This document shows, piece after piece, positions 6,497 to 61,686 of a DNA stretch of 64,000 bases (position 1 is the first letter of the stretch; every line of letters begins with the position of its first letter). Source of the DNA: a virus (lineage: Duplodnaviria; Heunggongvirae; Uroviricota; Caudoviricetes). The stretch lies in IMG/VR virus record IMGVR_UViG_3300030019_000007, one strand, 5' to 3'. The notes beneath the pieces are model-generated. The model saw only the letters and a program-made list of their open reading frames with translations. It was not told where the DNA came from and did not search any database. The translations under genes and the position numbers were made by a program.

Positions 6497-6771
6497 TGAT
6501 AGTAGAGTGCCCAAATTGTAAAAACTCGTTGAGAGTTAAAAAAGTAGATGATGAATTTATATGTTATAAATGTGGAACCATAATTTCTGGGGAAACTGTT
6601 ACACAAATAGGTGTAACTAACTATAAATTCAAAGATGATGACCAAGAGTACATCATTGTATTTAATGATGCAGAAGACTTACAAGAGTTTATGAAAATTG
6701 CTGAGGAAACAAAAGCAGGTTATAAACTATGTAAGATTACTACACCAACAGGAACTACAAAGATTGTATGA
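6496..6771 (+). CDS. zinc-ribbon protein
   Basis: CPNC...CYKC. Confidence 0.7.
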   Translation: MIVECPNCKNSLRVKKVDDEFICYKCGTIISGETVTQIGVTNYKFKDDDQEYIIVFNDAEDLQEFMKIAEETKAGYKLCKITTPTGTTKIV

Positions 6772-8470: not shown

Positions 8471-8552
8471 AGTTAAACAATTCAGAGCAAACACCACATA
8501 AAAAGATGGCTCTGCCCATTGACTTGAATATTATTCAAGTCCGTGTTTAACT
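8471..8552 (+). other. putative three-way-junction structured RNA or leader
   Basis: AGTTAAAC/GTTTAACT closing stem encloses CAGAGC/GCTCTG and GACTTGAAT/ATTCAAGTC hairpins. Confidence 0.45.
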
Positions 8553-8567
8553 AATAAAATTATTACA

Positions 8568-9263
8568 ATGGCAAGATTAATTGCAGTAGGGGGCGCTAGT
8601 TCGTCAGGTAAATCAAGTAGCATCGTTAATTTGAATCCAAAAGAAACTTTTATCTTTAGTGTGGCAAATAAACCACTTCCTTTTAAAGGATCTAAGAAAA
8701 AATATACCAATTTTCTTCAAAATAAAGAAACTGGTAATCTTTTGAATACCGCGAATCCTGAGTCTATTACAAAAGTGTTGAACTTTATCAACACAAAACG
8801 ACCTGAAATTCTAAATGTGATTATTGATGATATGCAGTATGTAACTGTATTTGAAACATTTTCAAGAAGTGCAGAAAAAGGTTTTGAAAAATGGAGCCAA
8901 ATTGCTTCCAATTTTTATAATATCGTTGCAGCAGCAAAAGATATGAGGGATGACCTCAATCTAATTTTCATGATGCATACTGATACAGATGAAGTTGAGG
9001 CATTAGGTACCGCAAAAATTACTTTAAAAACTGGATCAAAGTCAATTAAGAACAACCTAGTGTTGGAGGGATTGATGACTTATGTATTCATAACTGAAGT
9101 AACAACAGATGAAGCTGGAGTGTCTAAATACGAATTTATTACCAACGATGGTATGAAGAGTGTTGCAAAGACTCCAAGAGGATGCTTCGATGAAAAAAGA
9201 ATTCCTAATGATTTAGCTTTAGTCCTTGAAAAGATTAAAGTTTATGAAGAAGACGAAGACTAA
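8568..9263 (+). CDS. AAA ATPase, Sak4/AAA_24-like recombination protein
   Basis: GGASSSGKSSS Walker A, IIDD Walker B, AKTPRG C-terminal motif. Confidence 0.75.
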   Translation: MARLIAVGGASSSGKSSSIVNLNPKETFIFSVANKPLPFKGSKKKYTNFLQNKETGNLLNTANPESITKVLNFINTKRPEILNVIIDDMQYVTVFETFSRSAEKGFEKWSQIASNFYNIVAAAKDMRDDLNLIFMMHTDTDEVEALGTAKITLKTGSKSIKNNLVLEGLMTYVFITEVTTDEAGVSKYEFITNDGMKSVAKTPRGCFDEKRIPNDLALVLEKIKVYEEDED

Positions 9264-34699: not shown

Positions 34700-34829
34700 T
34701 ACTCAATTAGATATAGAAATAGATAAGAAAACTCGATCTCAGTTAAAGAAATTATTTGAATATCACGAATGGTGTGTAGAACATGACATCATTGTTATTT
34801 TTAAATGTGGTCCTATATTTCTGAATTAA
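34692..34829 (+). CDS. small hypothetical protein (45 aa)
   Basis: MYNTQLDIEIDKK...; overlaps the hydrolase stop codon. Confidence 0.45.
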   Translation: MYNTQLDIEIDKKTRSQLKKLFEYHEWCVEHDIIVIFKCGPIFLN

Positions 34830-34832
34830 AAT

Positions 34833-34871
34833 AAAAGCCCCTCTAGAGAAATCTAGAGGGGCTATTTTTTT
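34833..34871. terminator. bidirectional terminator between the convergent genome arms
   Basis: AAAAGCCCCTCTAGA-GAAA-TCTAGAGGGGCTATTTTTTT. Confidence 0.88.
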
Positions 34872-34874
34872 GTC

Positions 34875-37800
34875 TTAGTTGTTTGTGAATAAAGGAGCAA
34901 AAGGTCGAGCAAATCCAATGTTAGAAGTAATAGCTTTTCCAACTGATTCACTTCCAGAGGTTGCTTTTAAGAAACTATCCTTTACATCTTTTCCATAACT
35001 TAATGCTGCAAAAGGTTCTGCGCTTAATCCTGTACCTACTAAACTAAATACATTTAAATCATTACCTGATCGAAGTATTGCTTTATAAATTGCTGCAGCG
35101 TATTCATCATCTTTTTGGACAGTAGGCCAATCAATTAATCCAGCTATAGCTAATAAACATGAAACAATACCCATATCCCAAGCTAATAATTTCATATTAG
35201 CTGTACGTTCAGGCCTATCTTTTAATAGATTCCAAAAAGTGTCTATTTTGTTTTCACTGTGGGTTACTTCAGTAAACATATGAGCCATAGATATTAAAAT
35301 ACCCTCCATATATTTTCCTTTCCAAACTTTGATTGGAGTTCCAGTATTAGTAGTAGTGTGTTCTCCATTGCTGTCTACATAATACTTAACACCATCGACT
35401 TCTAAATCAACATAATCTCCTTGAGCATAAGATCCAGGTTTTAAAATATATTGATCTTTTTTAGAAGTTAACCAACGTTTAAATTGTAAAAACATCATAC
35501 CAACAATATTATTATTAAACATGATTTTAGTTTCATGATCATAATAACCGTGAATTCCATCAGCAAACATCTTCATACTCTCTCTTTGTTTTAAAGTGTA
35601 AGCTCTAGGAAGAGCTTCTCCTTCAGCAATGTTTTCGCCAAATTTATTAAAATCTGAACGCATTACATCATACAAAGCTTTTTGTTCTCCATATTTAGGA
35701 TTAGAAGTTTTACCCTCGGCAAATACATCAAAACGTTTATCTTTTTTAAAATCATACACCATTTTGCCATCTACTACACTATGAGCATCAAAGCATCCAT
35801 CATGTTTCATTTGAGCTGTAAATATCAACATACGATTAAAGTAGTCAGGTGCTGAAGAAGTCCAGTACATACCCCCTGATCTAAACCCTAATAGTCCTCC
35901 TCTATTTCTAGTCATTAATTCTGGAAGCATGTTAACATCCATATTATTTAGACCATACTCCATATTTAAAGCATCGGCTAAACCATGGTTATCTACGGAT
36001 TGGCTTAAACCTGTCATAAACTTTATAGCAGAGAAATACTCACTTTTATTAAACATATTCTCTCCATAGCTTCTGGACATTAATCGGGTTAAATTTCCCC
36101 ACTGTCCTTGAAATAAAGCCATAACTCCCGTGATAGGGTTTAATCCAATATTTGCAATACTAGCTACTTGTTTAATAGCATTCATTCCTTGGTGAAGTGC
36201 TTCAATTCCCGGGAGTATACTATTATCAGAGTAAATACTACTCTTAACATATTCTTTAATAAATGTCTCTGTATTAGGTATTTCAATATTTAATTCAAAA
36301 GCTTGCCAAGACATTGCTACTTTTAAAGCATTAACTACTGGTAAAATCTTATTATATTCTTCTTGTCTATTATAGGCAAATACAAAAGTGTCTAATACAG
36401 TTTCTAAGTTAGTTTCAAATGCTCCTAAGGTTTCCTCTTGTATAAGTTTATTTCTGCCTTCCATATCAGAATGAAATTCAAAGGAATTAAACATCTCAAA
36501 CATACCATTAGCATATCTATCTAGTTGAGTTTTATCTTGATCAAATATATTATTGATATTTAATAAACCATTGTACCATTCTTTAATACCTGAAGTAACA
36601 TTTTTATTTATCATTTTAGTAACCGCTGATCCTCTTAATAATGGCACCTGAAACCATTCTTGTGTATCTTGTTTTTGAAGTCCAACTTCTGAGGTAGGAT
36701 CTGAGGTACCATAACGTAGTTTGTTAATCTTATCTAAAAAGTATATAGAGAATTTACGTTCTTCTGGAGATAATTTAGAAGTAGGATCATAAGGATTCTT
36801 TAAAATTAATCTAGAATCTATATCTCCATCTGTTTGTACAAATAGATTTTTATAGGCATTAGCTTGATCTCCAATTGTTTTTATTCTAGCATAAGTAAAA
36901 CCTTGATTTTTTAAAAATTCATCTACTATGCCTTTACTTCCTTCTTTAAATTTACTTTGATTTATCTTAATTTGATTCATCGCAGCTTTTGTTAATTCTA
37001 CTAAAGATAATAGATTTTTAGAGGGCATACTAGTAGGATTCGTTGCTTGGGCCGTAATGTAAGAGATGTCTTGTTCAAAAGTTAAGGGTATACCTCCTTC
37101 ATAAACTATAGCATCATTTACCATTCCATAGAGTTTTTCCTCAGGAGTAGTGAATTTGTTAATATCATTGATATTACCCTGTTTCATAACAACATCTCGT
37201 AATTCCTGCTCTATTTGTCGTAAAGCAATCAATTTGCCTGTGCCTCTTTTATCTCCTAAAACAGTGATAAATCTCTCTATTTTAGACTTAGTTTTATCAG
37301 TAAAACTGTCTTCTTGCATCAATGTAGCAAATCTACTTAGCAATAAATCAGTCTTACTAGCCATAGGTATGTTACTAATATTGTTATCTATTTTCATCTT
37401 TTTAGTGATATAATCAAAGTTAAACATCAATTTATCACTATTTTGGGTATAAAAAGAAGAATCTACTGGATTAAAACTCATTATTCTACCAATATTATAA
37501 TTTTTAGCCGTAAATACATCAATATTATCATTTATGTAGAACAATGTCTTCATTAACTCAATATTACCATTTGTAGCCGCTAATAAGTTAGGTTCTCTCT
37601 CAGCAATAACATCTGAGGTAAAATTACCTAAAATTGAGTTACCTGTACTAAGTTTTACTTTGTTATTAAGTCTATTAACAGTATATGATACAAATTCAGC
37701 CGTCTTAGTGTTATTATTCACAAACATTAAGATACCTAAACTATCTAATGCCCCATCATTCATTATTAAGGACCAATCTCCTCCCACATACTTACTAAAT

Positions 37801-39317
37801 GCCCTCACTAATGTTTCTTTTCTTCTAATATCTTCATTTTTACCCCCTAGAGTAGTATCATCAAAAGATTTTTTCTTCTCAATAATATCATTTAAGTAAT
37901 CTTTAAAACTAACTAAAGCAGAGTAAGAATTTTCACTTTCTCTTTTAAAATACGCTTCTACTTCTTCTCTAATTTTATCTTTAGGAGCAGAAATATATTT
38001 TCTGGCAGTAATATCAAAGAAAGCTAATTTATTAGGGTCACGAATATCAGATTTAACTTTATTTGGATCTTTCATAAATTCATCAACATTAGATTTAGAG
38101 ATTTTCATCTTTAAATTATAGTTAAATGCTGATTTTAACTGTTCTGTGACATTTGTAGAAGCAGATTGTGATTCATAAAAAGCAGAGTTGTCTACTTTTA
38201 CAATTTGATTAATATTATAATTCATTTGAGGAGACATATCACTATCAGCAATCTCCGCAATCTTATATGGTGTAACACTAGAGATGGTTTGTCTTTCAAA
38301 GTCAATATCATCCATAGTTAATGGTATAATGTATTTACCTTTAACATTTATACCTTTATTTCTTAACATATTGGCATAAGTACCTAATTGATACTTAAAT
38401 GTAGTTACTTTTCCTGAATTCCAGGATTGGGGATCTTTATAAGAAGTTTTATAGTCATATATATGAGCTTTACCCTCAGAATCTATAACAAGTAAGTCAA
38501 TTACCCCTACTAATTTAGATGCTTCGTCATATACTTTGTATTCTGGAAGAATTACACAGTCTTCCCCATGTTTATCTCTTAGAGTTGTTTCTAGACTCTT
38601 TAAAAAATCTAAATAGTTTACTTTACCTTGATGACCTAGGTCTCGTATATCAGCTGGAAACATAGCAGTAGTAAAGGTAGAGTCATCTGGACTTAATACA
38701 TGTTTAAAGTAAACTTCCGCAAGTTTATGTATGTTTGTTCCAATACCTGCTAGCTTTTTCCAGTTAGCTAAATCTTGTGTAATAGTACTCTCGGCTAATG
38801 CTGAGAGTTTTGTATTAAATTCCTCATCAGTAATTAAATGTCTTTTATTATCGGACTTTAGTTTAGCATACTCTAAAGATAAATCTTGAAAATGTTCTAC
38901 ACCTGCTGGATCATTTAATTGTAATTGCTTAATAATATAATCTTTTCTACTTTCTCGATAATTTTCTTCATCAAAATAGATTAAACCTTTAGTTTCCCCA
39001 GATTTAGCTACTTCATTAAGATACTTTAAAACAGATTTATACCATTTACTTTTAGGAGTAACAAGTTTCTCTCCCATATCAGTAATAGCAGTAGTAACTT
39101 CTGGACCTTTGTGAGATATATTCATAAGTTTAGTTACTGTTTTCTGAGTAGGAGTATCTTCCTCATCATTTAAAACTTTAGAATATTCTATATCAGAGAT
39201 TTCCCTCCCTGATGATAGAATATCATAATGTTTTTCTAAAAATTTGTTTAACTCTATTTCTGAGTTAAATTCTATGTTTTTACCTTTGAAATTTAAATTA
39301 AATTTACATTTTCCCAT
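34875..39317 (-). CDS. giant putative virion cargo protein with a PD-(D/E)XK nuclease domain (1480 aa)
   Basis: GTNIHKLAE...GVIDLL...IYDYKTS...QLGTY; hydrophobic C-terminus. Confidence 0.75.
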   Translation of the reverse strand: MGKCKFNLNFKGKNIEFNSEIELNKFLEKHYDILSSGREISDIEYSKVLNDEEDTPTQKTVTKLMNISHKGPEVTTAITDMGEKLVTPKSKWYKSVLKYLNEVAKSGETKGLIYFDEENYRESRKDYIIKQLQLNDPAGVEHFQDLSLEYAKLKSDNKRHLITDEEFNTKLSALAESTITQDLANWKKLAGIGTNIHKLAEVYFKHVLSPDDSTFTTAMFPADIRDLGHQGKVNYLDFLKSLETTLRDKHGEDCVILPEYKVYDEASKLVGVIDLLVIDSEGKAHIYDYKTSYKDPQSWNSGKVTTFKYQLGTYANMLRNKGINVKGKYIIPLTMDDIDFERQTISSVTPYKIAEIADSDMSPQMNYNINQIVKVDNSAFYESQSASTNVTEQLKSAFNYNLKMKISKSNVDEFMKDPNKVKSDIRDPNKLAFFDITARKYISAPKDKIREEVEAYFKRESENSYSALVSFKDYLNDIIEKKKSFDDTTLGGKNEDIRRKETLVRAFSKYVGGDWSLIMNDGALDSLGILMFVNNNTKTAEFVSYTVNRLNNKVKLSTGNSILGNFTSDVIAEREPNLLAATNGNIELMKTLFYINDNIDVFTAKNYNIGRIMSFNPVDSSFYTQNSDKLMFNFDYITKKMKIDNNISNIPMASKTDLLLSRFATLMQEDSFTDKTKSKIERFITVLGDKRGTGKLIALRQIEQELRDVVMKQGNINDINKFTTPEEKLYGMVNDAIVYEGGIPLTFEQDISYITAQATNPTSMPSKNLLSLVELTKAAMNQIKINQSKFKEGSKGIVDEFLKNQGFTYARIKTIGDQANAYKNLFVQTDGDIDSRLILKNPYDPTSKLSPEERKFSIYFLDKINKLRYGTSDPTSEVGLQKQDTQEWFQVPLLRGSAVTKMINKNVTSGIKEWYNGLLNINNIFDQDKTQLDRYANGMFEMFNSFEFHSDMEGRNKLIQEETLGAFETNLETVLDTFVFAYNRQEEYNKILPVVNALKVAMSWQAFELNIEIPNTETFIKEYVKSSIYSDNSILPGIEALHQGMNAIKQVASIANIGLNPITGVMALFQGQWGNLTRLMSRSYGENMFNKSEYFSAIKFMTGLSQSVDNHGLADALNMEYGLNNMDVNMLPELMTRNRGGLLGFRSGGMYWTSSAPDYFNRMLIFTAQMKHDGCFDAHSVVDGKMVYDFKKDKRFDVFAEGKTSNPKYGEQKALYDVMRSDFNKFGENIAEGEALPRAYTLKQRESMKMFADGIHGYYDHETKIMFNNNIVGMMFLQFKRWLTSKKDQYILKPGSYAQGDYVDLEVDGVKYYVDSNGEHTTTNTGTPIKVWKGKYMEGILISMAHMFTEVTHSENKIDTFWNLLKDRPERTANMKLLAWDMGIVSCLLAIAGLIDWPTVQKDDEYAAAIYKAILRSGNDLNVFSLVGTGLSAEPFAALSYGKDVKDSFLKATSGSESVGKAITSNIGFARPFAPLFTNN

Positions 39318-39326
39318 CGATTCTTA

Positions 39327-42300
39327 TTATTTAAAGCATATTGACGTTAATGTTTCATCTTTCATTAATTCAGCATGCAAGTTTTTTATTTTTCTACTAA
39401 CCACATTATCATATTGATGTAACGCGTGATTAAATTTACCCTCTAATAAGTTATCTCCAAATCTATTTAATAATTGATCTAAGGATAGATTCATAAAATC
39501 TTTATCACTGTAATCTAGTATTTTAGGAGAATTAAAAGTATCTGAGAATATTTTCTTTACAAAGTTAAGAATTTTTTGGAATAATCCAGTATTTTCATCG
39601 TTCCACTGTTTGGTATACTTATTTTTATCTAAATTACCTCTATAGTGTTCCCCAAAAAGAGTAGCAAATACTTCTTCATCTAAAGTATCTTTAGGTCTTC
39701 CAGGATAAGATTTTGCTATATTATCATAATCTGGATGAGATTCTACAGAAGCAATCATTTCCTTATATAGGTCTAAATTTCGAGACTTAATACTACTTAA
39801 TACTAAGTGTGCCATCTCATGTAAAGGTTCGGCAGATGAAGCCAAATCAAGGTTAATATAGATTTTACCATCGGAGATGAACGCCCGTTCTTTTGAAGGA
39901 GTTCCCTCAACAGTACTATTAAACCTCTCTGCAATTTCATCTGATCTTAATAATTCAATATCAACATCATACATAGATTTTAATAAATCACTAACTTGTT
40001 CTATTTTAGCAGACCCATCTCTACTCTTTGTAAAAGCAGTAGTTTCTCTAGAAAATCTAGCTGAAGCTTTTCTAGGTTTAGGCTGAGTAGTTGCTTCCGG
40101 AGTAGTAGGAGAATCTTCCCTTGAGGTTTTTAGACTATCTATAAGTTGTTTTGTGCCTTTCATTCCTCTTCCTTTTTTCTCAAACTTAATGGCATTAATT
40201 CCAGGATATTCTACTACAGCTTCTTCTCCTGCTTTAGGAAATTTTCTTAAAACAGTTGCATTAGAGAATGTTAACATTTTACTTTCTTCCTTATTATCAA
40301 AACGAAGTATATTTAAACTTCCTTTATTTTTCTTGATAATAATTCCATCCATGTATATTTTTTTTCCTTGATAATCCCAAGTTTCTGTAATAATATCTCC
40401 TACTTTTAAACTATCGTGAATTTTTCCTTTAACTCTATATGGATACCATAATTCATCATACCCAGATTGACCTTCAGTATAGAATTTACCATTTTTTTCT
40501 ACGGCATATTTCATTTGTGTAACTCCTTCTGGAAGTTTGTCATATACCTTATCCAAGTATTTTTCACTAACAGCCCAGGTAGCTTTACCATTTTTTTCAC
40601 CGTATATAGCATCTTTTACTTGTCTTACTTTGGCAAATCCTGCTGTAGTGGCTTCTTCTGGGGTAAAAAACTTAGGAGTTTTAAATGCTTTGAATTTCTC
40701 TTGATAATTCTTAATAGTATCTAACATATCTTGATTACCGTGAACTTCATTTTCTGCATCTGGTTTAATATTGATACCCAAAGCTCTAATATTCTCTAAT
40801 TGAATAGGGTATACTTTATAACCAGGTTTTGTAGTAAACTCTTTACCAGAGGTAAATTGTTTATTGTAAGAGCCAGTAAAAGTCACACATAAAGGAAGTC
40901 CTTCCTCATTGACATCTGTGATTACATGCCATTTTTCTATGTCTTTTCCAGATTTATCAGTAAATACTTTACCTTTAAGTATATCTCCACGAGTTAATTT
41001 GGAGACTGCGTCTTTTAATTCTCCAGAATTATTTGGATCATAATCAGAGTACTCAGTTAAGTAATATTCTTCTTGTAATTCAGTAGATTCCTTAGCTTTT
41101 AAAGCTTTAATCCTATTTTCACTTCTATAATCTTTATCATCAAAGATTTCTTGATATTTTTTCTTTTTAACATCAAAAGCATCAAATAATTTAGCTTCAC
41201 TAATATTGTTATGGGCAATTGCAGCAAGACTTGATTCATCTCCAAATGATTTTGAAATATTCACATGCATAATATTACCTTCTTTTCCATAAAAATAAAC
41301 GGTATTAGCTGTAGTTGCAATTACTGGATACCATCCGGAAACAGGTTTTGCAATTTTAGTAACTTTATCTTTAATATTCCAAGCAACCTTAATTAAATCT
41401 CCAGTTTTTAAATTTTCTATAAGTCTTCTTCTTCTTCCTAATACTTCTTTAAAAGCATCTTTAGTGGCTTGAGTTTGTGTTAAAGGTTTAGGACCAAAAC
41501 TATAATAATCTTTTGTTTGAGAAGTATTAGTCTCAGGGTTATACTGATCTAAATACTCTGTTTTAAACATATTATTAATAGTTTTTTCACCAGCAGTATC
41601 TTCTACATAAAAATAACTTTTAACATCAACAGTTTTACCTTCTTTATCTAAAAGGGCCTTAAATTCTGGATGATTTTCATTCTGATAAATGATTTCTCTT
41701 AAATCATTTAATCCTACATACTGTACTTTACCAGCAGTTGACACTATTTCAAGTGAATTGGCTAATTTTCTAAGTACTATACCACGAAAAGGAGAATATT
41801 TTTTATTTTTTGAAGTAAATAAAACTTTAACAACATCTCCTGTGACAATTCCATCAAATAGAGTTTGAGCGGCTTCTCCATTAGTAAAAGCAAATCCCAT
41901 ACTATTTTTATTAGAAGGAATAAACTTTTCATAAGATTCTTCATCTCCATTTTCATTCTTATACTTAGATTTAAAACTACGTAAAACAGATTCTGGATCC
42001 ATACCTGTTTCTGGATCTGGATAATAAGAAATTAGTTTATCAAAAGCTGTTTTAACTAATTTAGGATCATGATGTTGTTCTTTTAAGTCTCCCTCATAAT
42101 ATCTATAACCGGTTACATATTTCCCCTCAATATCATAGTTATTAGCTCCATCAGCTGATGGAACTCTAACCATCATTACTCCATTTTTACGAAAAGTTTT
42201 AATAATTGGTCTAAAAGAAGATCCAGCAAATTTCTTTTCAGTGGGTTCTACATGTTCCCATGATTTAGAAGATTTATCAAATCTTAAACTCATAGGAAGA

Positions 42301-43688
42301 AGGACCAAGTCATTTTGTCTCAGTCTTTGTAATTGTACATCAGAACTTGTTTCTGACATCTCATAAGTTTTGCTATAATTAGTATTAAACTTATGATATT
42401 TATCAGTTTGTTGTAATTCTTTAGTATTATCAATAAATCTATCTCTAACTTTATTAGATTGTTCTACATAACCTGTTCTATCATATCTTTCTGGGTCAAT
42501 AGTGGCACGTACAAGAGAAGCAGTGGATTCATGACCAAAAGGAGAATTTGTAGATTCTAAAAAATCTCCCTCTTTTAAAGTTATTGAATCTCCATTATAA
42601 CTTGTTGCAGTAATTTCTGAAGGAGTTACCTTATCAATAGTAACTAATAGTGCATATGAAGGGTCAATATTTCTAATATAAAAACTCTCTCCCTCTTTAA
42701 TTTTAGGATCAATCGGGAACATTCCAGGAGTTTTTATTTCTATAATAGAACCATCGTTGATTCCCTTATCTAAATATTGTTGCATAGAAACAGGTTCTTC
42801 TCTTACTTCATTATTACTATATCTTTGAAAAACATTATTTAATGACTGTACAGAACCTTGTCTATTTTGAACTTCTTTAATTAATGCATCTAAAATAGGG
42901 ATAGGTTGACCTTTTTCTACATCATTTGCAAATTTTTGAAAATCTGAATTAGTAAGAGCATAAGCTAAAATTTCTTCTAATTTACTATCTCCTTCTTTTC
43001 TTGCAATAGCTTTAAGTACTCCATTCATAGCAGGATAAGCAGTTTCTAATTGTTTTCCTCCTTTACCCCATTTAGCTTTAATTAAATCATAACCATTTAG
43101 TAATAAATCTCTTATCTTACCATCTTTATAGATACCATCACTCAAATACTTATGAATTAATTCATGAGAGAGTAATTCTATCTTTTCAGGAGAATTTATA
43201 CTTTCTTTCTCCCCAACATGTATATAAATATGTCCAGTAGTATTATCAAAGAAACCTTGTGCAGTACCTCCATTGGTTGTACGTATAGGTTGTGATAAAA
43301 AAGAAATTTCCCTCCCATCATCTGAGAGAGTTCTAGTAATAAAACTAGCTAATGGAGAAGTATTTGTACCTCTCTCATTAAGCAAGTTTATCACATCAAT
43401 ATTATTTTGATTTGGTGGTAACGGATTACCAATTAAATCATTTAATGGTACAGCTGCAGTATATGTATATTTTGTTTCTGTTTTTGCTTTATTTTCAGCT
43501 AAAAGAGTAGAACTAAAATGTTTAAGAGCAGTTGGGTCCAATAGACTAACTACTTTCATAAGGTCATCTACTGTATCTATGTGTGTTGATTTTCCTTCTT
43601 TGGCCCTTTGTGCCATATAATCGTCTAAAGGGAGATCGCCTATTTTGTAGACGATCCCATTTATAGTAAAATTTACTGTACAACTCAT
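39327..43688 (-). CDS. giant putative virion cargo protein with two zincin-like HExxH domains (1453 aa)
   Basis: HELIH...EEILAY and HEMAH...EEVFATLFG. Confidence 0.72.
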   Translation of the reverse strand: MSCTVNFTINGIVYKIGDLPLDDYMAQRAKEGKSTHIDTVDDLMKVVSLLDPTALKHFSSTLLAENKAKTETKYTYTAAVPLNDLIGNPLPPNQNNIDVINLLNERGTNTSPLASFITRTLSDDGREISFLSQPIRTTNGGTAQGFFDNTTGHIYIHVGEKESINSPEKIELLSHELIHKYLSDGIYKDGKIRDLLLNGYDLIKAKWGKGGKQLETAYPAMNGVLKAIARKEGDSKLEEILAYALTNSDFQKFANDVEKGQPIPILDALIKEVQNRQGSVQSLNNVFQRYSNNEVREEPVSMQQYLDKGINDGSIIEIKTPGMFPIDPKIKEGESFYIRNIDPSYALLVTIDKVTPSEITATSYNGDSITLKEGDFLESTNSPFGHESTASLVRATIDPERYDRTGYVEQSNKVRDRFIDNTKELQQTDKYHKFNTNYSKTYEMSETSSDVQLQRLRQNDLVLLPMSLRFDKSSKSWEHVEPTEKKFAGSSFRPIIKTFRKNGVMMVRVPSADGANNYDIEGKYVTGYRYYEGDLKEQHHDPKLVKTAFDKLISYYPDPETGMDPESVLRSFKSKYKNENGDEESYEKFIPSNKNSMGFAFTNGEAAQTLFDGIVTGDVVKVLFTSKNKKYSPFRGIVLRKLANSLEIVSTAGKVQYVGLNDLREIIYQNENHPEFKALLDKEGKTVDVKSYFYVEDTAGEKTINNMFKTEYLDQYNPETNTSQTKDYYSFGPKPLTQTQATKDAFKEVLGRRRRLIENLKTGDLIKVAWNIKDKVTKIAKPVSGWYPVIATTANTVYFYGKEGNIMHVNISKSFGDESSLAAIAHNNISEAKLFDAFDVKKKKYQEIFDDKDYRSENRIKALKAKESTELQEEYYLTEYSDYDPNNSGELKDAVSKLTRGDILKGKVFTDKSGKDIEKWHVITDVNEEGLPLCVTFTGSYNKQFTSGKEFTTKPGYKVYPIQLENIRALGINIKPDAENEVHGNQDMLDTIKNYQEKFKAFKTPKFFTPEEATTAGFAKVRQVKDAIYGEKNGKATWAVSEKYLDKVYDKLPEGVTQMKYAVEKNGKFYTEGQSGYDELWYPYRVKGKIHDSLKVGDIITETWDYQGKKIYMDGIIIKKNKGSLNILRFDNKEESKMLTFSNATVLRKFPKAGEEAVVEYPGINAIKFEKKGRGMKGTKQLIDSLKTSREDSPTTPEATTQPKPRKASARFSRETTAFTKSRDGSAKIEQVSDLLKSMYDVDIELLRSDEIAERFNSTVEGTPSKERAFISDGKIYINLDLASSAEPLHEMAHLVLSSIKSRNLDLYKEMIASVESHPDYDNIAKSYPGRPKDTLDEEVFATLFGEHYRGNLDKNKYTKQWNDENTGLFQKILNFVKKIFSDTFNSPKILDYSDKDFMNLSLDQLLNRFGDNLLEGKFNHALHQYDNVVSRKIKNLHAELMKDETLTSICFK

Positions 43689-43689
43689 A

Positions 43690-53313: not shown

Positions 53314-53316
53314 ATT

Positions 53317-56300
53317 TTATGATTTACAGGTTTTATTATCAGTTGTAGTAAGATAATCTTTTAACATTTCTAGAGTCTTTGCATTTTTTGGTAACATTAA
53401 TAAATCTGTGGCATTCTCATAATTAACATTTGGTTGCTTTCCCTCTGCAATATCAATCAATGCTTGTCTATCTCCTTTAATATAAGTTAAGAGAACTTGT
53501 AATTCTGCATTTCTCGGATTATCTTGTATTAATTGGGTGACACTTTCCCCTAAATTTGTTTGTAATTCTATCATTTGTTCAAAAGTTGGTGGCTCGAATT
53601 TAGGAGCCTTGGTTACTACATTTAATTCTTTTGTGATTGGATCATATGATCCTTCTACTACAAAAGTACTATTTTCTGCCTTAAAATCAAACCTTTTAGT
53701 GTTTTTATTGTAAACAATAGAATCTTCGTCTATCTTACTATCTTTTATTTCTGGGATAAGTGATTGAGATTCTATAGCATTAGTTATGTCCTCTGGATTT
53801 ACAGTATCAGTATGTATTATTTCTTTAGGTGTTAAAACTGTTGCTATAGAAGTCATATTATCTTTCATAGTAGTTACTTCTTTTACAATTTCATCATCTG
53901 ACATACCTTTAAATGATTTATTCTCAATACTTTCCATTCCTTCTGTCATAAATTCATGTATATCATCTTTTCCAACATTTTTACCCGCTTCAATCAAATG
54001 TTCTTTAAGAGTTTGTTTTGCCAAATTTTCAGAATCTATACTTTTAGCATTCTTTTGTTCTGAAGTTACTACATGGTCTAAATCTAAGATCGAATCAAAC
54101 ATAGTTGGAAGTACATTTGTAGTAAACTTACCTGCCGCAATTTCAACATAGTCCGTTATAGGAGTGGTATCCGGTTTTCCACCTAAATTTCTCTCATAAA
54201 TAGCATGTGTAAAAATACCATGAGGGTATTCTACTTTAAGATAATCATTAAAACCATCAAAAAATTGTTTTCTAAGATCAGGTCCTGCAAATTCTCCAAG
54301 TTGAGCATAGTATTTTCCATTTTCCATACCTCCGTCAATTGCAACTCCTAGAGCTACTAATAATCTATAAGTATGGTTATACTTAAAGTTATATCTCATC
54401 CCTACTCCATTTACTTTAGCTGTTGGATCTGAATTTAATCCGGTAATTATTCTACTAATTTCAGAAATTTTAGCTTCTTGATATTTAGCAGACTTAAGAG
54501 TATCAATTACTAAAGGATCCGCTTGAAACATTTCATGAATTCTCGTTAAGATTTCTTTACCTCCACGATATAATACTTTCTCTGTAGCAGTTGCTGTTTT
54601 TTCGTCTATTTTATTTTTAGTAATAGCAACCATATTGGTAATTGAATTATAAATTCTGGCAGCCATTTCGGGTGACGAACTTAATCCAATTGGTTTTGCT
54701 GTTCCTTTAGGTTTTCTAACTTCCTCCATTAGATTTGAAATCCATTGACTTGGTTCCACTCCTGATTCATCTAAAACTACTAATTTAACTCTAGGAACTG
54801 GAAGATCTGAAATAGCAACTCCTTCTTTCATAAGTCTTCTATTCTCAATCATCTGTGATATGTACATATTCTTTAATTCAGAGGAATCTCTAATTGTAGG
54901 ATCAAAAGTGCTGAAATATATAGTCCTTCCGATAAGTTTTCTATCTTTAGCCCATTGTACAAAAGCAGAATCTCCATCAGTATCTTTAATTGGTGCATGT
55001 CCTGTAATTAAATAAGTTGGAGAAGATAACCCAGTTTCTCTATCTTTTTTAACATCATCAAAAGTCATTCTTTCTTTGTAATAACGTAATTGAGCATTAG
55101 TCATTACTTCTAAAGCATCAAAAGTATTATCCTTATCAATCATCAAATTTACTGGACCTGTTTCCACTTTACTTTTAAGATCTGCTGTCATTTTAGAAAA
55201 TGTTGTATCTAACATACTACCCTCTTTGTGTTCTTTAATTCTCTTTAAAGAACTAAATGGAGCTAAAGTAAAGTATACAGGAGATAAATCTTCATTAGTC
55301 TCTTGGTCTACTCTAGGAATTTCTAAAGCCATTCTAAAGAATGGTTCATTTTTATTTTCTAAAGTAGAATCATAATTAGCTGTATGAGTTCTATCAAATT
55401 TAGAATCATATTTAGAAACTCTAATTACTATTTGAGCTTTATTAAATTGAAGAGAACTATCTATTTCACCAATAAGTTTCTCAACCATATCCATGTCTTT
55501 ATAGTAAAATAAAGAGGCTTTAATATTTTTTAAAATATTCTCAAATCGATCTTGATATTTAGAAGGGTCACTCACAGTACTTAATAAATACCCCATATCC
55601 TCATTTCCCTCTCCTAAATCCCATTTTTTAGTTTGTTTATCATAGGATGCTGACCATCTATTATAAAATGGATAAGTTATAATCTTATTATTAACATATT
55701 TATTAGGATCTGATTCATAAGAACGTACTACTCCTCCTCTATTATCTATAATTTGACGAGTATTTTGTAGTTCATCAAAAATATTAGAGAGTAAAGATAC
55801 TTCCGGAACACTTGGACTTGAAGTATTAGCAACTTGTGCTGCTTTAGTAGCCTTAGGTTCTGGTTGATCAAATGGAAATGATGCAGCAAGTTGATTTAAA
55901 ATAGTAACTCTACCATCTTTATAATCTTGTACTAATTTAGGATCTAATTCTGTAGGCAAAACATCTTTCTCTATCATATGAGTTACACTAAATAGTTTAT
56001 TTTTAGTTAATCCATTATCAGAGATTAAAGTACCTGAACGAGAACGAGAAGTTAAAGTATATATATTTGAGATCAAATTACTTATCCCAAAATTTGGGTC
56101 AGTGGTAAATTTTTCCCAATTAACATCAATTACAGTATTATCATATTCTTTACCTTGAACTTCACCAATAGATTTAATCTCTATCTTATCACTTAAAATA
56201 GGATCATTTGCAATTTCTTTAGCAAGTCTAGACTCTAAATTATCAGTGATAAATCCTATTTTGCCTTTAGCTGTACTGGCCAATTTTCGTAGAGTTGCAG

Positions 56301-59300
56301 AAGTTAATTCTGACTGATCAATGATTTTTTCCCCATAAATTGCACCGCCTTCTCCAGTAAAACTAGCTAATTTAAATTCATTTCCGGAAGTACCAGTAAA
56401 TTTCATTAAATCTGCAATAACATTCGTGTAAGTATAATCGCTAGTAACTTCTACTTTTCTATATAACTCATCTATATAATTATATAAGTTTACTACTCCA
56501 ATGAGATTCTTTCTTTTAATATTATTAGAATTACGTAAGGAAGACCCTAATTTAGGAGTTCTCCAAACATGGAATAGATTAAGATTATGCTTCTCATTAT
56601 TTATTAATGCTCCATTTTGTCTAGTATCCCCTAATAATACTAATCTTGGAGGATTACTCATATTATCAAAAGTTTGTTTAACTAATTGTAACTCAATATT
56701 AGAGAGATGGGTTGCCTCATCTATAAAGATAACATCTGGAAGATTTTTTCTCTCAGCGTCCCCATTTAATAAAGAAGTATCAACTTTATTTAATTTCCAG
56801 AAAGCGAATTTTTTATAACCTTTACCTTCTTCTAAACCTTTAATATCAGTTTGGGCAGGTTTTCCATCATTTGTTGGTATAAAATAAGTGTCCTCTATTT
56901 TTGAGATATATTTTGAATTTTTAGCGGATTTACTATCCATAGTTGTAGTGGCCATTATCTCATCCACTATTCCGGATTGTTTTTTATCTCCAACAATAGC
57001 TTTTAATAAAGTAGCTTTATCCATTACTTTGGTAGCTCTACCTTCTAAACTATCTTGTAATTGTTCTGCTTGACTTAAATGAGGAGCAGATGCCCAAAAA
57101 GTTAATCCTCTAGCTTTTAATAATTTTCCTAATGCATTTCCTAAAGCTGAAGTTTTTCCTGCGCCTGGTACACCATCTGCAGCAACTGTATTAGTTAAAG
57201 GTTCAATAATTTTAGATAAATAAGCTCCCTCAGTATTTCCAATTTTTGAGATAGCCATGTTCATCCATGTAGGATCTATAATAGCTCCATAAGCAATTTT
57301 TACAGAGTACTCTTGACTATAAAATGGAGCATATTTGCCAGCTTCAATTCCATCATAGTGTCCTCCTCCTAAATCGTTTCCTCTTAATGCATTAATAAAC
57401 TCAGAAGGATTTACCATAAAACTGGTATTTAACCATATATATGTGTCTAAAGGTTGAATAGTGTCGGCTGTAGAAGAAAAATCAGTTAATTTTGGATGTG
57501 ATAATGCTATTGGAGAAAATATGTCTTGTGTATCTTTTGACATAACACCGTTAGCATCTATACCAAATAGTTTATTAAATACATATTCTTTACCTCCATT
57601 TTTCATATTCTTATCTACTAAATCTTGAACTCTATTATATAGAGTCTGTTGAATAGTGTTTCTTTGAATTTCAAAGTTCAATAAATCTTCAGGAGAAGAA
57701 GGTAAAGCTTGTTTATTAGTACCTCTTTTTGACGTAATAATGTTTTGTAAAACAGAAGCATTGGCTATTGCTGCGGTAATGGAACTATCAAAGAATTTCT
57801 CACCATCAATAGATACATTATCTAATAATTTAAATAAAGGGGCATTAGGAGTTAGTTGTTCATAGAACATAGCTTCCATATTAAGACCCGATTCTCTCGC
57901 ATCTTTTATTTTATCCTCAGAATTTAATTTACTTAGTCTAAGTAAAAAATCTATTTTTTGACCTATTATTCCAATCTCATTTCCTAATGCTGTGAATTGA
58001 TCTTGAGAAATAGTACCTAAGTTACTATCTTTAAAACTGTTATTAATAACATTATTATAGCCATTAAACCCATCAGTTTTATAATCATAATTAGTTGAGG
58101 CATTCATTACACTAACAACTTGACTTAATAAATCCATGGCATGTTCCAAATTTTGATGAACATCTGGTTTATTAATTTCATAATCTGTCATTTTTTCTAA
58201 TTTCTCAATAGAATCAAATTCAGAAGTTAATAGTGTTAAGATATCTGAGGGTTTTCCATCGTGAATGATCGCATATTTTTTAAGTAATTCATTTAGAGTA
58301 TCTATAGATTTACTTTTAGTAATATTATCGAAAGTAGCAAGTTGTTGTAAAACATCTTGTGCTTCATTTGAAGCAATTAATTGGTCAAAATATTCATTTA
58401 TAGTTTGTTTATCAACAGCAGGATCAGTAGAATCAGTCTTTGCTTTTTCTAAATATTTCTTTCTTAGATTGTCTAGTTCTGAAATTTTACTCGCGTAAGT
58501 GTCATTAGCAATTTGTTCTAAAGTTCCATCACCAAAACCTAAAAGTTTAGTATCTCCATCTTGGAAATTACCATCTTCATCTAAAGATGAAGGTCCTTTT
58601 GTTAAGTCATAAGCTTCCCTGTCTAATCCCACATCTTTAAGAGTAAAACTAGTCATGACATTTCTCATATCTTTCACTACTGAGGCATCCAATCTTTGAT
58701 ATTCTGGATTAGCAATGACATTCATGATTTCATCTCTTGCGGCAACTCTTGGTCCTATTTCATTTGCAGCAGTAACATTAAGTAATTGACTAGCATAGTT
58801 ATTTCTATTTAAAAATAACTTTTCTTGAGCCAAAACATCCATGGTATCTTTAGAGAGAAAAGAAAGTGTTCTTAAAGTTCCATGATCTTGAAAAGTTGGG
58901 GGTGGCGAAGGTAACCCAGGTATTACAATTGATGGATTGAAAGTTCTTTCCATGTTTATAAGACTATAATGCCCTTCTCTTTGATCTGCATATACAGCTA
59001 AATCTCTTAAAACCGTAGAGAACTTTTCATTAACTTGGGTAAATCTTTTATAGGCTACTTTAATTTTATCTTTCCACTCTAAGTCTTTCCAAACATTATA
59101 TTCTTTTGAGGTCTCTTGTTTTTGTATTTCAGTAAGATTTGCATATTCAGTTCCTTTCGTACTCATTGCATAATCCTCTAAAGAGAGTTTAGCAAAAGAT
59201 CTATTAATCATAGGACTGATTCCAAAGATTGCAAATTTTTGATAATCTACAAATTTCTCTCCACTAGTGATTAATCGTAATTCTTCTTTTTTCTGACCTA

Positions 59301-61686
59301 ATTGTACATTCAAATCTTGTACAGCTCTTGCTGCAGTTTCGACTGCAGAAACAGGATCAGATTCTTTAACTTCACTTGCTTTAGTGATCTTACTTTTGAT
59401 GTCTATTATATCGTTTATTATATTACCAAAATCCTCAAAGAGTGGAGAATTGGCTTTTAAATCAATTAACATATCAGTACGAGCATCTAATATTTTAGAA
59501 AGAGACATATCACTTACAGGGCCTTCTTGAAATATTTGATTTTGCATATTCTTCATCATACCAACAAGTAAATCTCCTGTAGCATCATTTTGAGATGTTC
59601 TTCCATCGCTCATAGGTAAAAATATAGATTGTTTACCTAAACCTTTAATATCTAAAGTCACAATATCTGTAGATAAACTTGTACTTCCTAATTGTCCTTT
59701 ATCTTTTCTTTTGAGAACTTCTTTAATATATCTTTCTCCTAAACCATTTCTAGCAATATAATATAATTCTTTTTTAGTGGGGTCGTCAAGACTTTCTTTT
59801 ACAGGATTCATTATCTGATCGTGTATTTTAAATACTGCCCCACCGATAGCACCTCCTAATAAACTCATTCCATATCTAGAAGATATTTGTCCTAAGTTTC
59901 CGAATTCAAAATCTTTATCTTTAGAAGAAGTTATACCTAAAGCAGACATACCATTATATATCCCTTTAATAGCATCTTGCATAACATCTTGTGCTCCCAT
60001 TTCTAAACCTTGAGCTATCATAGCACTAGGAATATCAGTTACGTTACCTTTAAAAGTGGTACTAATTTTAGTTCCAATACTTTTACCTAAAGTAAATAAT
60101 TTATTATATCGAGAAGTGGAAGCTTCTTTAGTAGCATCTGTACTACCTTTTTCAAAAATTGTAGAGAATTTTTCAGATTGCTGTTTAATTTGAGTTTCTA
60201 ATGCTTTACCTGCCTCATCTAATCCCATACCATTTAAAATCCAATGTCCTATAGGAAGAGCTGTCATCATACCAAAGAAACCTAAACTGGTTCCTAAAAA
60301 TAATGCTGCAGTATCTCTTTCATCCATTCCTCTTTCTTTAGCTACCTCAGTTATACTTGTGGCCATAGAAGCTGCTAAGTAACTAGTACCTAATCCATGA
60401 CCTAACTTAGTACTGGAAGCTATTTTACCCATAAGTTTTGCAGCTCCAGGAATAGTTCCCATAATCTCTGCTTGTTTTCCTACTGCTAAGGTTCCATCTA
60501 ACATTCCTTTAGCAGCATCTGCACCAAAAGAAGTTTCTATTGCTTTTAAAATTGGTTTACTCTCAGAACCAACTCCTAATAATTTTGGGATACTTGAGAT
60601 AAGTTTTTGAGAATACATTAAAGGAAACAAATCTCCTACCATAGCAGCCAATCCCTCAGGATTAATAGATTTAAGCTTTGCATTATCAGAGGTTCCATTA
60701 GAAGACATGGTTTTACCAAAACTTTGTACTTTATTTAAAGTTTTCCAGTAATCTTTATCAACATCATCATCCCCAACAAATAAAGCTGCTCCAGACTTAA
60801 TTAAAGTTGGAGCTAATTCAGTTAATTCTAGCCCTATTAAACCTGCAGCATACACTTGTCCTACATATGGGATGAAAAAAGGAATTGTCTTTACAAACGT
60901 TTTAGTAACTACTCCAGCAATAGATTTATCTATGCCATCAGAGTCCATGAAATCATACTTATTTGCCCATGAACCATCCTTGGTTAATGTATCCGCCCAA
61001 CTTAAAACTTCTTTGCCATGTGAGGGTCTATCTCCTAAAGTTTCATAGAAGAAATTACCATCACTATCAGTTTTATAATCTCCAGCATGATGTACTACTT
61101 TTCTTCCTTGTTGAGCATCATAATGTGTACCTTCCTTATCATATTGGCCAAGTACTAATGTAGGTTTTTTCCAAAAATTCCATAGACCTCTTGAATCATC
61201 ATCATCTGGACTCCAATTTAATGCTTTACCTGTTACTCCATCATACACACTATTCATCTGAGCCACTTCTCTAATTGAAAATTCTGGTTTTGAAGTCTCA
61301 TTAAAGTCAGAAATACCAGTTTTTTGATGAAATGGATTACTTACTTTATCAGTTTTATATAAATCAGTTTCAATTTTTGCATCTTTAGGTGCATATGAAT
61401 TGTAGGGATTATATTCAAAGTCATTTATTGCTTTTTTTGAATAATCATCTTTTGCAAACTCATTATATGAGTATAACAAAGCATTATAATATTGTCCATA
61501 TTTATCATCATTAAAAGTACCTGTTGTAGGATCTTTAAACATATCTTGGACTACAGGACTTGCTTTATAATAGTCTTTATCCTTAAGAGTTGTGTTTTCT
61601 GGATTTACATCATTTGCTTGAAAATCATCATGAGTAGCATCTGGAAGATTCATATTTGCTACTAACCAGTCATTAGTATTTGCCAT
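53317..61686 (-). CDS. giant putative virion cargo protein with N-terminal hydrophobic segments and a central SF1 helicase-like domain (2789 aa)
   Basis: DGVPGAGKTS, SAPH, IFIDEATH, LLGDTRQ, QGKEY, YTLTSRSR; Gly-rich hydrophobic stretches such as SLLGGAIGGAVF. Confidence 0.75.
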   Translation of the reverse strand: MANTNDWLVANMNLPDATHDDFQANDVNPENTTLKDKDYYKASPVVQDMFKDPTTGTFNDDKYGQYYNALLYSYNEFAKDDYSKKAINDFEYNPYNSYAPKDAKIETDLYKTDKVSNPFHQKTGISDFNETSKPEFSIREVAQMNSVYDGVTGKALNWSPDDDDSRGLWNFWKKPTLVLGQYDKEGTHYDAQQGRKVVHHAGDYKTDSDGNFFYETLGDRPSHGKEVLSWADTLTKDGSWANKYDFMDSDGIDKSIAGVVTKTFVKTIPFFIPYVGQVYAAGLIGLELTELAPTLIKSGAALFVGDDDVDKDYWKTLNKVQSFGKTMSSNGTSDNAKLKSINPEGLAAMVGDLFPLMYSQKLISSIPKLLGVGSESKPILKAIETSFGADAAKGMLDGTLAVGKQAEIMGTIPGAAKLMGKIASSTKLGHGLGTSYLAASMATSITEVAKERGMDERDTAALFLGTSLGFFGMMTALPIGHWILNGMGLDEAGKALETQIKQQSEKFSTIFEKGSTDATKEASTSRYNKLFTLGKSIGTKISTTFKGNVTDIPSAMIAQGLEMGAQDVMQDAIKGIYNGMSALGITSSKDKDFEFGNLGQISSRYGMSLLGGAIGGAVFKIHDQIMNPVKESLDDPTKKELYYIARNGLGERYIKEVLKRKDKGQLGSTSLSTDIVTLDIKGLGKQSIFLPMSDGRTSQNDATGDLLVGMMKNMQNQIFQEGPVSDMSLSKILDARTDMLIDLKANSPLFEDFGNIINDIIDIKSKITKASEVKESDPVSAVETAARAVQDLNVQLGQKKEELRLITSGEKFVDYQKFAIFGISPMINRSFAKLSLEDYAMSTKGTEYANLTEIQKQETSKEYNVWKDLEWKDKIKVAYKRFTQVNEKFSTVLRDLAVYADQREGHYSLINMERTFNPSIVIPGLPSPPPTFQDHGTLRTLSFLSKDTMDVLAQEKLFLNRNNYASQLLNVTAANEIGPRVAARDEIMNVIANPEYQRLDASVVKDMRNVMTSFTLKDVGLDREAYDLTKGPSSLDEDGNFQDGDTKLLGFGDGTLEQIANDTYASKISELDNLRKKYLEKAKTDSTDPAVDKQTINEYFDQLIASNEAQDVLQQLATFDNITKSKSIDTLNELLKKYAIIHDGKPSDILTLLTSEFDSIEKLEKMTDYEINKPDVHQNLEHAMDLLSQVVSVMNASTNYDYKTDGFNGYNNVINNSFKDSNLGTISQDQFTALGNEIGIIGQKIDFLLRLSKLNSEDKIKDARESGLNMEAMFYEQLTPNAPLFKLLDNVSIDGEKFFDSSITAAIANASVLQNIITSKRGTNKQALPSSPEDLLNFEIQRNTIQQTLYNRVQDLVDKNMKNGGKEYVFNKLFGIDANGVMSKDTQDIFSPIALSHPKLTDFSSTADTIQPLDTYIWLNTSFMVNPSEFINALRGNDLGGGHYDGIEAGKYAPFYSQEYSVKIAYGAIIDPTWMNMAISKIGNTEGAYLSKIIEPLTNTVAADGVPGAGKTSALGNALGKLLKARGLTFWASAPHLSQAEQLQDSLEGRATKVMDKATLLKAIVGDKKQSGIVDEIMATTTMDSKSAKNSKYISKIEDTYFIPTNDGKPAQTDIKGLEEGKGYKKFAFWKLNKVDTSLLNGDAERKNLPDVIFIDEATHLSNIELQLVKQTFDNMSNPPRLVLLGDTRQNGALINNEKHNLNLFHVWRTPKLGSSLRNSNNIKRKNLIGVVNLYNYIDELYRKVEVTSDYTYTNVIADLMKFTGTSGNEFKLASFTGEGGAIYGEKIIDQSELTSATLRKLASTAKGKIGFITDNLESRLAKEIANDPILSDKIEIKSIGEVQGKEYDNTVIDVNWEKFTTDPNFGISNLISNIYTLTSRSRSGTLISDNGLTKNKLFSVTHMIEKDVLPTELDPKLVQDYKDGRVTILNQLAASFPFDQPEPKATKAAQVANTSSPSVPEVSLLSNIFDELQNTRQIIDNRGGVVRSYESDPNKYVNNKIITYPFYNRWSASYDKQTKKWDLGEGNEDMGYLLSTVSDPSKYQDRFENILKNIKASLFYYKDMDMVEKLIGEIDSSLQFNKAQIVIRVSKYDSKFDRTHTANYDSTLENKNEPFFRMALEIPRVDQETNEDLSPVYFTLAPFSSLKRIKEHKEGSMLDTTFSKMTADLKSKVETGPVNLMIDKDNTFDALEVMTNAQLRYYKERMTFDDVKKDRETGLSSPTYLITGHAPIKDTDGDSAFVQWAKDRKLIGRTIYFSTFDPTIRDSSELKNMYISQMIENRRLMKEGVAISDLPVPRVKLVVLDESGVEPSQWISNLMEEVRKPKGTAKPIGLSSSPEMAARIYNSITNMVAITKNKIDEKTATATEKVLYRGGKEILTRIHEMFQADPLVIDTLKSAKYQEAKISEISRIITGLNSDPTAKVNGVGMRYNFKYNHTYRLLVALGVAIDGGMENGKYYAQLGEFAGPDLRKQFFDGFNDYLKVEYPHGIFTHAIYERNLGGKPDTTPITDYVEIAAGKFTTNVLPTMFDSILDLDHVVTSEQKNAKSIDSENLAKQTLKEHLIEAGKNVGKDDIHEFMTEGMESIENKSFKGMSDDEIVKEVTTMKDNMTSIATVLTPKEIIHTDTVNPEDITNAIESQSLIPEIKDSKIDEDSIVYNKNTKRFDFKAENSTFVVEGSYDPITKELNVVTKAPKFEPPTFEQMIELQTNLGESVTQLIQDNPRNAELQVLLTYIKGDRQALIDIAEGKQPNVNYENATDLLMLPKNAKTLEMLKDYLTTTDNKTCKS

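Follow-up and report, generated by a model that had tools for sequence, protein, structure and literature searches.

Facing terminal cysteines suggest an end-to-end link between the giant cargo proteins of a crAss-related phage

Introduction

Why should giant phage proteins that contain very few cysteines carry them at exactly those ends that face one another in gene order? The question is raised by IMG/VR virus record IMGVR_UViG_3300030019_000007 (Caudoviricetes), of which a stretch of 64,000 nucleotides (nt), here called the window, was analysed. It concerns four consecutive minus-strand genes encoding giant proteins termed A, B, C and D (Table 1). An initial annotation of the DNA had noticed cysteine (Cys) residues at the protein ends and proposed that the C-terminal Cys of each protein is bonded to the N-terminal Cys of the next, giving a chain that it estimated at approximately 8900 amino acids (aa) (the actual sum of A, B, C and D is 8929 aa), which would be threaded out of the capsid in gene order and come apart in the reducing cytoplasm.

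Crassvirales are the most abundant human gut phages. How they pack and inject a protein cargo of about 0.7-1 MDa, including the polymerase that starts infection, has been stated to be an unanswered question (PMC10172136; PMC13434306). The comparisons described here give good support to a link between successive cargo proteins by way of their terminal Cys residues; that the joints are inter-protein disulfide staples, which make one linear chain for packaging and ejection, is a reading to which we incline without pressing it.

Results

Cysteine positions in the four giant proteins

The four proteins contain 13 Cys in 8929 residues (1, 5, 3 and 4 in A to D, respectively), i.e. a Cys content of 0.146% compared with 1.05% in 36 plus-strand open reading frames (ORFs) of the window, a 7-fold depletion. 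The single Cys of A, Cys2787, is its third-last residue (...KTCKS), the N-end of A being free of Cys. B has Cys at positions 6 (MSKNNC), 474, 717, 2893 and 3206 (...INCD); C has Cys at positions 3 (MSC), 934 and 1451 (...SICFK); and D has Cys at positions 4 (MGKC), 254, 1175 and 1387, the last of these being 93 residues before the C-end. Six of the 13 Cys are no more than 6 residues from an end facing a neighbour, one at each of the six such ends, so that paired Cys are present at 3/3 junctions and 0/2 outer ends. The exact positions bear out what the initial annotation had read from the sequence by eye, including the terminal motifs, the low number of Cys per protein (put at 1-5), the lack of any other Cys in A, and the absence of Cys from the N-end of the first protein and the C-end of the last; the gene spacing that it gave, 1-9 nt, likewise agrees with measured intergenic gaps of 3, 1 and 9 nt for A-B, B-C and C-D, respectively.

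If Cys is taken to be placed uniformly inside each protein, the six terminal hits together have a probability of 5.8e-14 when the zones comprise 6 residues at the start and 3 at the end, and of 9.7e-12 when all zones are 10 residues long; the terminal placement, for which a chance test had been suggested at the outset, is thus far beyond chance. Among the 36 plus-strand ORFs, Cys is present in the first 6 residues of 2/36 and in the last 3 residues of 2/36.

Conservation among relatives

Relatives were retrieved from IMG/VR via an alignment of B homologues, an IMG/VR scan with C alone having returned none. The 83 loci retrieved have the same giant-gene order; their contigs are 40-220 kb long, and the genetic code is code 11, TAG=Q or TGA=W. 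Genes were called with the best-fitting code per locus, and representatives of 29 clusters at 50% identity were counted, a junction being taken as paired when Cys is present within 10 residues on both sides. By this measure, 79/88 tight junctions carry a Cys pair. The nine unpaired junctions comprise four between a small protein and A, as in the window, and one between D and the next gene, the rest being in loci L060 and L081. The outer ends are free of Cys in all cases counted (0/10 for A N-ends, 0/24 for D C-ends), and the terminal zones hold 157 Cys, the expectation being 4.6; in four loci (L002, L004, L028 and L033) all the Cys of the giant proteins are terminal. The placement is narrow, with 0, 1 or 2 residues after the C-terminal Cys in 73/79 and the N-terminal Cys at position 3 or 4 in 63/79.

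The terminal Cys are also conserved at the level of individual residues. All 18 full-length B homologues (20-76% identity) have one Cys at position 3-6 and another as the final or penultimate residue; Cys6 and Cys3206 of B are the only invariant Cys in this set, and are among the ~55 invariant columns of 3207. Cys4 of D is the sole invariant residue in the N-terminal 200 aa (27 homologues), and at the facing ends Cys is the only invariant residue.

It could be argued that the terminal Cys act singly, e.g. as acylation sites, as processed N-terminal nucleophiles, in a zincin cysteine switch or as redox sensors, with the pattern as a by-product. The commonest N-ends, MAC, MGC and MSC, would place Cys at position 2 after Met removal, and Cys could in principle cap the HExxH motif of C. 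We consider a stand-alone role improbable, in that it leaves unexplained the Cys-free N-ends of A and C-ends of D, as well as the joint loss of Cys at fusions and the joint gain at splits described below, and in that the Cys-bearing proteins have unrelated domains (helicase-like, RNA polymerase (RNAP), HExxH and nuclease). A lipobox lipoprotein was rejected: no signal peptide precedes the Cys, which occupies position 3-6 and follows directly on Met and 1-4 residues that are polar or small.

Insertions were observed at some of these loci. In L060, gene C contains a 631-aa ORF encoding a YkuD L,D-transpeptidase domain (L060:17735-19630), and the flanking pieces violate the Cys rule, an 884-aa piece being without a C-terminal Cys and a 699-aa piece starting MSC but being partnerless. 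In L037 (17816-18805), and also in L017 and L018, an insert of ~990 nt without a long ORF is present between B and C, both facing Cys being retained.

The pair follows protein boundaries

Splits and fusions of the giant genes are informative with respect to what the Cys pair tracks. In L006 and L007, B is split at approximately residue 2380-2390 to give genes of 2534 and 835 aa with an 8-nt overlap, and the split site has a new pair (...EENCNG and MDKGC...) at a point where the unsplit B of the window has no Cys. In L033, L035 and L005, a fusion joins B to the C-terminal portion of C and the internal pair is absent, the L033 fusion (3111 aa) having 2 Cys only, both terminal. In fusions of the first protein with the RNAP, such as gp32 of Flavobacterium phage FpV4 and many IMG/VR ORFs of 3900-5100 aa with a single Cys, the C-terminal Cys alone is kept. 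The initial annotation had listed a split ancestral polyprotein as an alternative to a bonded chain; fused forms do exist, as that alternative would have it, but it is not a rival, since fusions without the pair fit the chain proposal.

In many related phages, inserts of 0.2-2 kb interrupt the RNAP gene within its DxDxD motif, and such disruptions have been reported by Yutin et al. (PMC7886860). The pseudo-ends at these inserts have no Cys, as expected if the RNAP is made whole. The inserts cut exactly within the GSDYDIDK motif (L032:14209-15300, L030:14448-16025, and L061, L064, L070 and L076). Two of the RNAP-gene inserts encode LAGLIDADG endonucleases (E 5e-32 and 8e-17); an Rfam search covering five loci in which the RNAP gene is interrupted returned no intron model at the gathering score.

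The close spacing of the window genes, the pairs of which flank gaps of 1-9 nt, would be compatible with the TGY codons being a nucleotide signal at gene junctions, e.g. for translational coupling or as a processing site. Other tight junctions (602-aa protein with A, D with the next gene) have no such pair, however; both TGT and TGC occur, and Cys is not at a fixed distance from the stop or start codon. In CrAssphage LMMB, a relative of p-crAssphage, and in crAss002, the paired genes are 130-170 nt apart, the crAss002 spacer having a terminator-like hairpin, and in crAss001 the gp47 gene is convergent to gp50-gp49, such that the facing Cys occur without a shared junction. The convergent crAss001 genes refute a junction signal, and the 130-170 nt spacers and the variable codon spacing also speak against it, leaving it with a negligible chance of being correct. 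The persistence of the pair without gene adjacency in crAss001 argues for a protein-level feature; as judged from all these comparisons, the Cys pair is a property of the proteins that tracks their ends.

Classical Crassvirales

The terminal Cys are also present in classical Crassvirales. In phi14:2, the products of g067, g066 and g065, which are annotated as proteins of the virion found by mass spectrometry, together have four Cys in 5398 residues, all of them terminal, i.e. the last residue of g067, position 3 and the second-last residue of g066, and position 3 of g065. The g066 product, gp66, is the virion RNAP (PDB entry 6VR4). In crAss001, gp47 has a single Cys at -3 and gp49 a single Cys at position 5; gp50 has three, namely Cys5, an internal one and one at -9 (8 residues from the end). 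Two-protein systems follow the same rule: in LMMB a 1957-aa protein ends ...SFSCM and a 4070-aa RNAP fusion starts MSC; in FpV4, gp32 (4287 aa) has a single Cys, the second-last residue, and gp33 (1596 aa) starts MAC. In 41 further IMG/VR clusters the RNAP and the next protein are paired in 35/37 cases and the previous protein and the RNAP in 17/19, the unpaired cases having the appearance, from sequence, of interrupted genes. Conservation of the terminal Cys in homologues and across Crassvirales, proposed as a check when the pattern was first noticed, is thus apparent both at the 79/88 tight junctions and in the classical phages.

In crAss002, gp32 has one Cys (...SFVCS). The annotated gp33 has an internal Met-Ser-Cys at residues 33-35 (L086:17088-17190), with a terminator-like hairpin upstream; because this internal sequence fits the family rule, the annotated start of gp33 is probably 32 codons too early.

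Smaller proteins encoded upstream of the giant block in these phages also have a lone Cys near the C-terminus, for which there is no evident N-terminal partner. An 861-aa protein of LMMB (L085:4662-8161 region) has one Cys, the second-last residue, and a 264-aa protein of LMMB and gp30 of crAss002 (L086:6393-8066) end in R-C-G-G.

Chemistry and topology of the link

That the C-terminal Cys of one protein acts together with the N-terminal Cys of its successor is strongly supported by the comparisons, in that the pair is conserved at 20-35% identity and tracks splits and fusions, and in that the outer ends are Cys-free. For the rest of the original claim, we infer from the sequences a covalent bond, disulfide chemistry, chain topology and a role in packaging and ejection.

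Disulfide formation is the simplest chemistry for a link between two lone Cys. Virions of crAss001 contain inter-subunit disulfides, i.e. in the gp57 dimer, tail hubs and ring proteins, and gp47, gp49 and gp50 are present in the same virion (Bayfield 2023, PMC10172136); for these reasons disulfides between cargo proteins are plausible. Alternatively, as the initial annotation had also considered in the form of a shared metal site, each facing pair may hold a metal ion (Zn, Fe or Cu), or the Cys may together form a cluster, so that the ends are joined by coordination. Such a link would need no oxidant in an anoxic habitat; the conserved HExxH of C means that the complex likely binds metal somewhere; and three-protein systems have exactly four terminal Cys, the number of a Cys4 site. 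We nonetheless consider metal bridging unlikely. Two thiolates alone make a poor Zn or Fe site, there is no conserved His, Asp, Glu or second Cys beside either Cys, and the terminal Cys scale at two per junction (2, 4, 6 and 8 in two-, three-, four- and five-protein systems), rather than forming one hub. A single Cys4 or cluster hub was rejected on the same ground, that Cys numbers scale with junction count.

The order in which the ends are connected is a separate matter. B and C might each be closed into a ring, with A joined to D, or the ends might be attached to the portal or capsid interior. The numbers of N- and C-terminal Cys balance under a ring topology as well, and the lone C-terminal Cys of some smaller cargo proteins must have another partner. 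In the two-protein systems of LMMB (1957 and 4070 aa) and FpV4 (4287 and 1596 aa), however, a head-to-tail pair between the proteins is the only one possible; each fusion deletes exactly the two Cys that are partners in a chain, whereas rings need a partner swap every time; and the new ends at the L006 split are peptide-bonded in unsplit relatives and are thus natural neighbours. Stubs that meet at a junction are correlated in length (rho 0.21, p 0.007), unlike the two stubs of one protein (0.10); the effect is weak and carries no correction for phylogeny. The two-protein systems, the fusions removing chain partners and the split lead us to prefer a chain over rings, on comparative grounds; the other topologies seem rather improbable, slightly more so than metal bridging.

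The local context at both Cys is strand-like, with hydrophobic residues at -4 and -2 before the C-terminal Cys and at +2, +4 and +6 after the N-terminal Cys, followed by Gly at +8. In AlphaFold2 (AF2) models, Cys4 of D is just before a confident β-hairpin (predicted local distance difference test score 81-92) and helix, and Cys1451 of C is in a free 10-residue tail past the last helix. Complex prediction with the last 150 aa of B and the first 150 aa of C, using 12-row alignments, gave a score of 0.31, the mark being 0.32, with low fold confidence.

Several points weigh against a disulfide-linked chain. All the support for the bond comes from comparison of sequences, and the Cys counts fit a chain and rings (B and C self-closed, A joined to D) alike. 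The rule is broken at loci L060 and L081; in three cases, crAss001 gp50 among them, 8 residues follow the C-terminal Cys; and the smaller cargo genes of some crass phages bear unpaired C-terminal Cys. The hosts are Bacteroidota with a reducing cytoplasm, many of them in the anoxic gut, so that when and where oxidation would occur is questionable.

The proteins and their locus

Features of the four genes and their surroundings are collected in Table 1. B has the family motif G(S/E)D(Y/F)D(I/V)D, invariant in the 18 aligned homologues, and hhalign comparison of the B-family profile with the virion RNAPs of phi14:2, crAss001, LMMB and FpV4 gave 97.9% probability (E 3.3e-13, 60 columns), the likeness being confined to the catalytic barrel segment. 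The label 'RNAP' in the initial annotation is upheld by the invariant DYDID and by this match, which support B being a Crassvirales-type (gp66-like) virion RNAP; its packaging in the virion is suggested by synteny. In other searches, B has no match in Pfam (E 0.01 or better), PHROGs or the PDB (phmmer and profile), and BLASTP, PHROGs and PDB sequence searches gave no similarity of the window proteins to classical crass proteins. Megablast of the RNAP region against INPHARED phages gave no match, and the matches from tblastn were limited to two gut phage records that lack annotation. B also contains a second motif resembling DYDID, KGDYDIDE, at residues 3100-3104 (44002-44016, minus), ~100 residues from the C-end, two of its Asp positions being nearly invariant among 12 homologues.

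PHROGs searches gave nothing for A, B or C, and C has no Pfam family at E 0.01 or better. In a fold search against the PDB, the AF2 model covering the last 170 aa of C matched nothing at E 0.001 or better; the likeness of C to zincins is thus at motif level, through HExxH. The N-end of A (61645-61686, minus) has a (K)NDW(L/F/I) motif within its first 12 residues, which is kept in most complete homologues, including those in L003, L007, L028, L061 and L064; the NDW-bearing N-end of A may be the leading end of the proposed chain.

The plus strand carries a replication module, including DNA polymerase, DnaB- and Dda-like helicases, primase, ribonucleotide reductase and an rIIA-like protein. The minus-strand block thus has the features of a Crassvirales cargo block, i.e. 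co-directed giant genes by an RNAP, with PD-(D/E)XK and HExxH motifs, opposite the replication module, and it is laid out like the 'transcription gene block' that Yutin et al. 2021 (PMC7886860) described for crAss-like phages. On the basis of motifs and layout, we assign A-D as a divergent four-protein form of the Crassvirales transcription/cargo block and the phage as crAss-related. By analogy with phi14:2 and crAss001, for which packaging and injection of the RNAP are shown, A-D are probably carried in the virion and injected, a view that for this phage is based on synteny. The 602-aa protein encoded upstream of A is possibly a minor component of the cargo; as in the window, the homologues from L001, L006 and L068 contain 0 Cys. 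The hairpin and T run following D are likely a terminator that closes the four-gene block.

Table 1. Coordinates of the giant genes, their facing Cys codons and associated features in the window.
Feature	Position	Strand	Remarks
Protein A	53317..61686	minus	2789 aa; proposed first chain link
Protein B	43690..53313	minus	3207 aa; crass-type two-barrel RNA polymerase (by motif and profile)
Protein C	39327..43688	minus	1453 aa; HExxH carrier
Protein D	34875..39317	minus	1480 aa; proposed last chain link
TGT, Cys2787 of A	53326..53328	minus	A-B pair, C-terminal member
TGT, Cys6 of B	53296..53298	minus	A-B pair, N-terminal member
TGC, Cys3206 of B	43696..43698	minus	B-C pair, C-terminal member
TGT, Cys3 of C	43680..43682	minus	
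TGC, Cys1451 of C	39336..39338	minus	C-D pair, C-terminal member
TGT, Cys4 of D	39306..39308	minus	
P-loop, SF1 (superfamily 1)-helicase-like domain of A, residues 1500-1691	56614..57189	minus	Pfam AAA_30, E 3.1e-9; GVPGAGKTS present
Catalytic motif DYDID of B, residues 2152-2156	46846..46860	minus	Invariant in 18 homologues
HEMAH motif of C, residues 1290-1294	39807..39821	minus	Conserved HExxH, ~160 residues from C-end
PD-(D/E)XK nuclease-like domain of D, residues 191-324	38346..38747	minus	Pfam PDDEXK_1, E 6.1e-8; PHROG exonuclease families
Upstream neighbour of the proposed chain	61703..63511	minus	602 aa; zero Cys; outside Cys rule
GC-rich hairpin then T run	34828..34863	minus	Directly after D stop codon; sequence only

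Discussion

We propose a model in which A, B, C and D would be translated separately and then linked in the particle, the proposed bonds, A-2787 to B-6, B-3206 to C-3 and C-1451 to D-4, most likely being disulfides. The product would in effect be one linear thread of ~8900 residues, because the stubs past the Cys are only 0-2 residues on the C-side and 2-5 residues on the N-side. Extreme-terminal Cys are what a linear thread needs, in that stubs of 0-5 residues keep the cross-section near to that of a single chain. The thread would ensure 1:1:1:1 co-packaging and could traverse the narrow channel of portal and tail in single file, after which the reducing cytoplasm would free the parts. The crAss001 cargo must partly unfold to pass constrictions under 50 Å, and N-to-C ejection has been proposed for crAss001 gp45 (PMC10172136). 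That Crassvirales and their relatives in general carry their giant cargo proteins as a single covalent hetero-polymer, of 5,000 to 9,000+ residues, made via end-to-end disulfides, threaded through the tail and dismantled in the reducing cytoplasm, we advance more tentatively, as a reading that may well prove too broad.

Like the window, phi14:2 (g067-g066-g065) and crAss001 (gp47-gp50-gp49) have giant genes ending the late module, and their cargo blocks share with the window the GSD(F/Y)D(I/V)DK RNAP motif, PD-(D/E)XK, HExxH and the terminal-Cys rule. By contrast with the three proteins in phi14:2 and crAss001, there are four in the window, where A has an SF1-helicase-like P-loop and D is a separate 1480-aa nuclease-like protein; in some phages, the three cargo proteins are fused (Drobysheva preprint, bioRxiv 10.1101/2020.03.07.982082). 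The disulfides known from crAss001 virions (in the gp57 dimer, the tail hub and the ring proteins) bond separate polypeptides, as proposed here; however, they staple a fixed lattice via internal residues, whereas the Cys of the window proteins are at the extreme ends of mobile cargo, with one pair per junction, and would give rise to a linear hetero-chain.

Phage N4 (Schitoviridae) also injects a giant RNAP together with helper proteins (gp50 vRNAP, gp51 and gp52), which, like the window cargo, are Cys-poor, although the N4 RNAP is of a different polymerase family (PMC13434306). The three N4 proteins (L090:12523-25523) have 0 Cys in 4294 residues and therefore no such link is possible in N4. 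It seems, from these sequences, that Cys poverty is common to injected proteins and that the terminal pairs are special to the crass lineage. Split inteins resemble the window proteins in comprising separately translated pieces, with Cys at the joining ends, that form a single protein in relatives, but there are no intein fragments in the window; a split intein, or trans-splicing, was rejected, as Pfam finds no Hint domain in B or C and only 0-5 residues lie beyond each Cys.

The initial annotation had reported no prior description of such a chain, and none was found in our literature searches. Terminal Cys are not mentioned in Bayfield 2023 (PMC10172136), the Drobysheva preprint, Yutin 2021 (PMC7886860) or the 2026 N4 paper (PMC13434306), and targeted literature searches returned no description of terminal Cys or disulfides of crass cargo.

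From a practical perspective, the Cys rule marks true protein ends where recoding, introns and frameshifts hamper gene calling, and it tells real gene splits from intron interruptions. More generally, the rule is strict and simple in sequence terms and so leads to a concrete model, testable in cultured phi14:2 and crAss001 and perhaps on existing mass-spectrometry data, as crAss001 virion samples were analysed both reduced and non-reduced in Bayfield 2023. If the link is real, we know of no earlier case of distinct phage proteins being daisy-chained end to end for ejection; if true, the model would represent a new principle for the packaging and injection of phage proteins, i.e. a 'post-translational polyprotein'.

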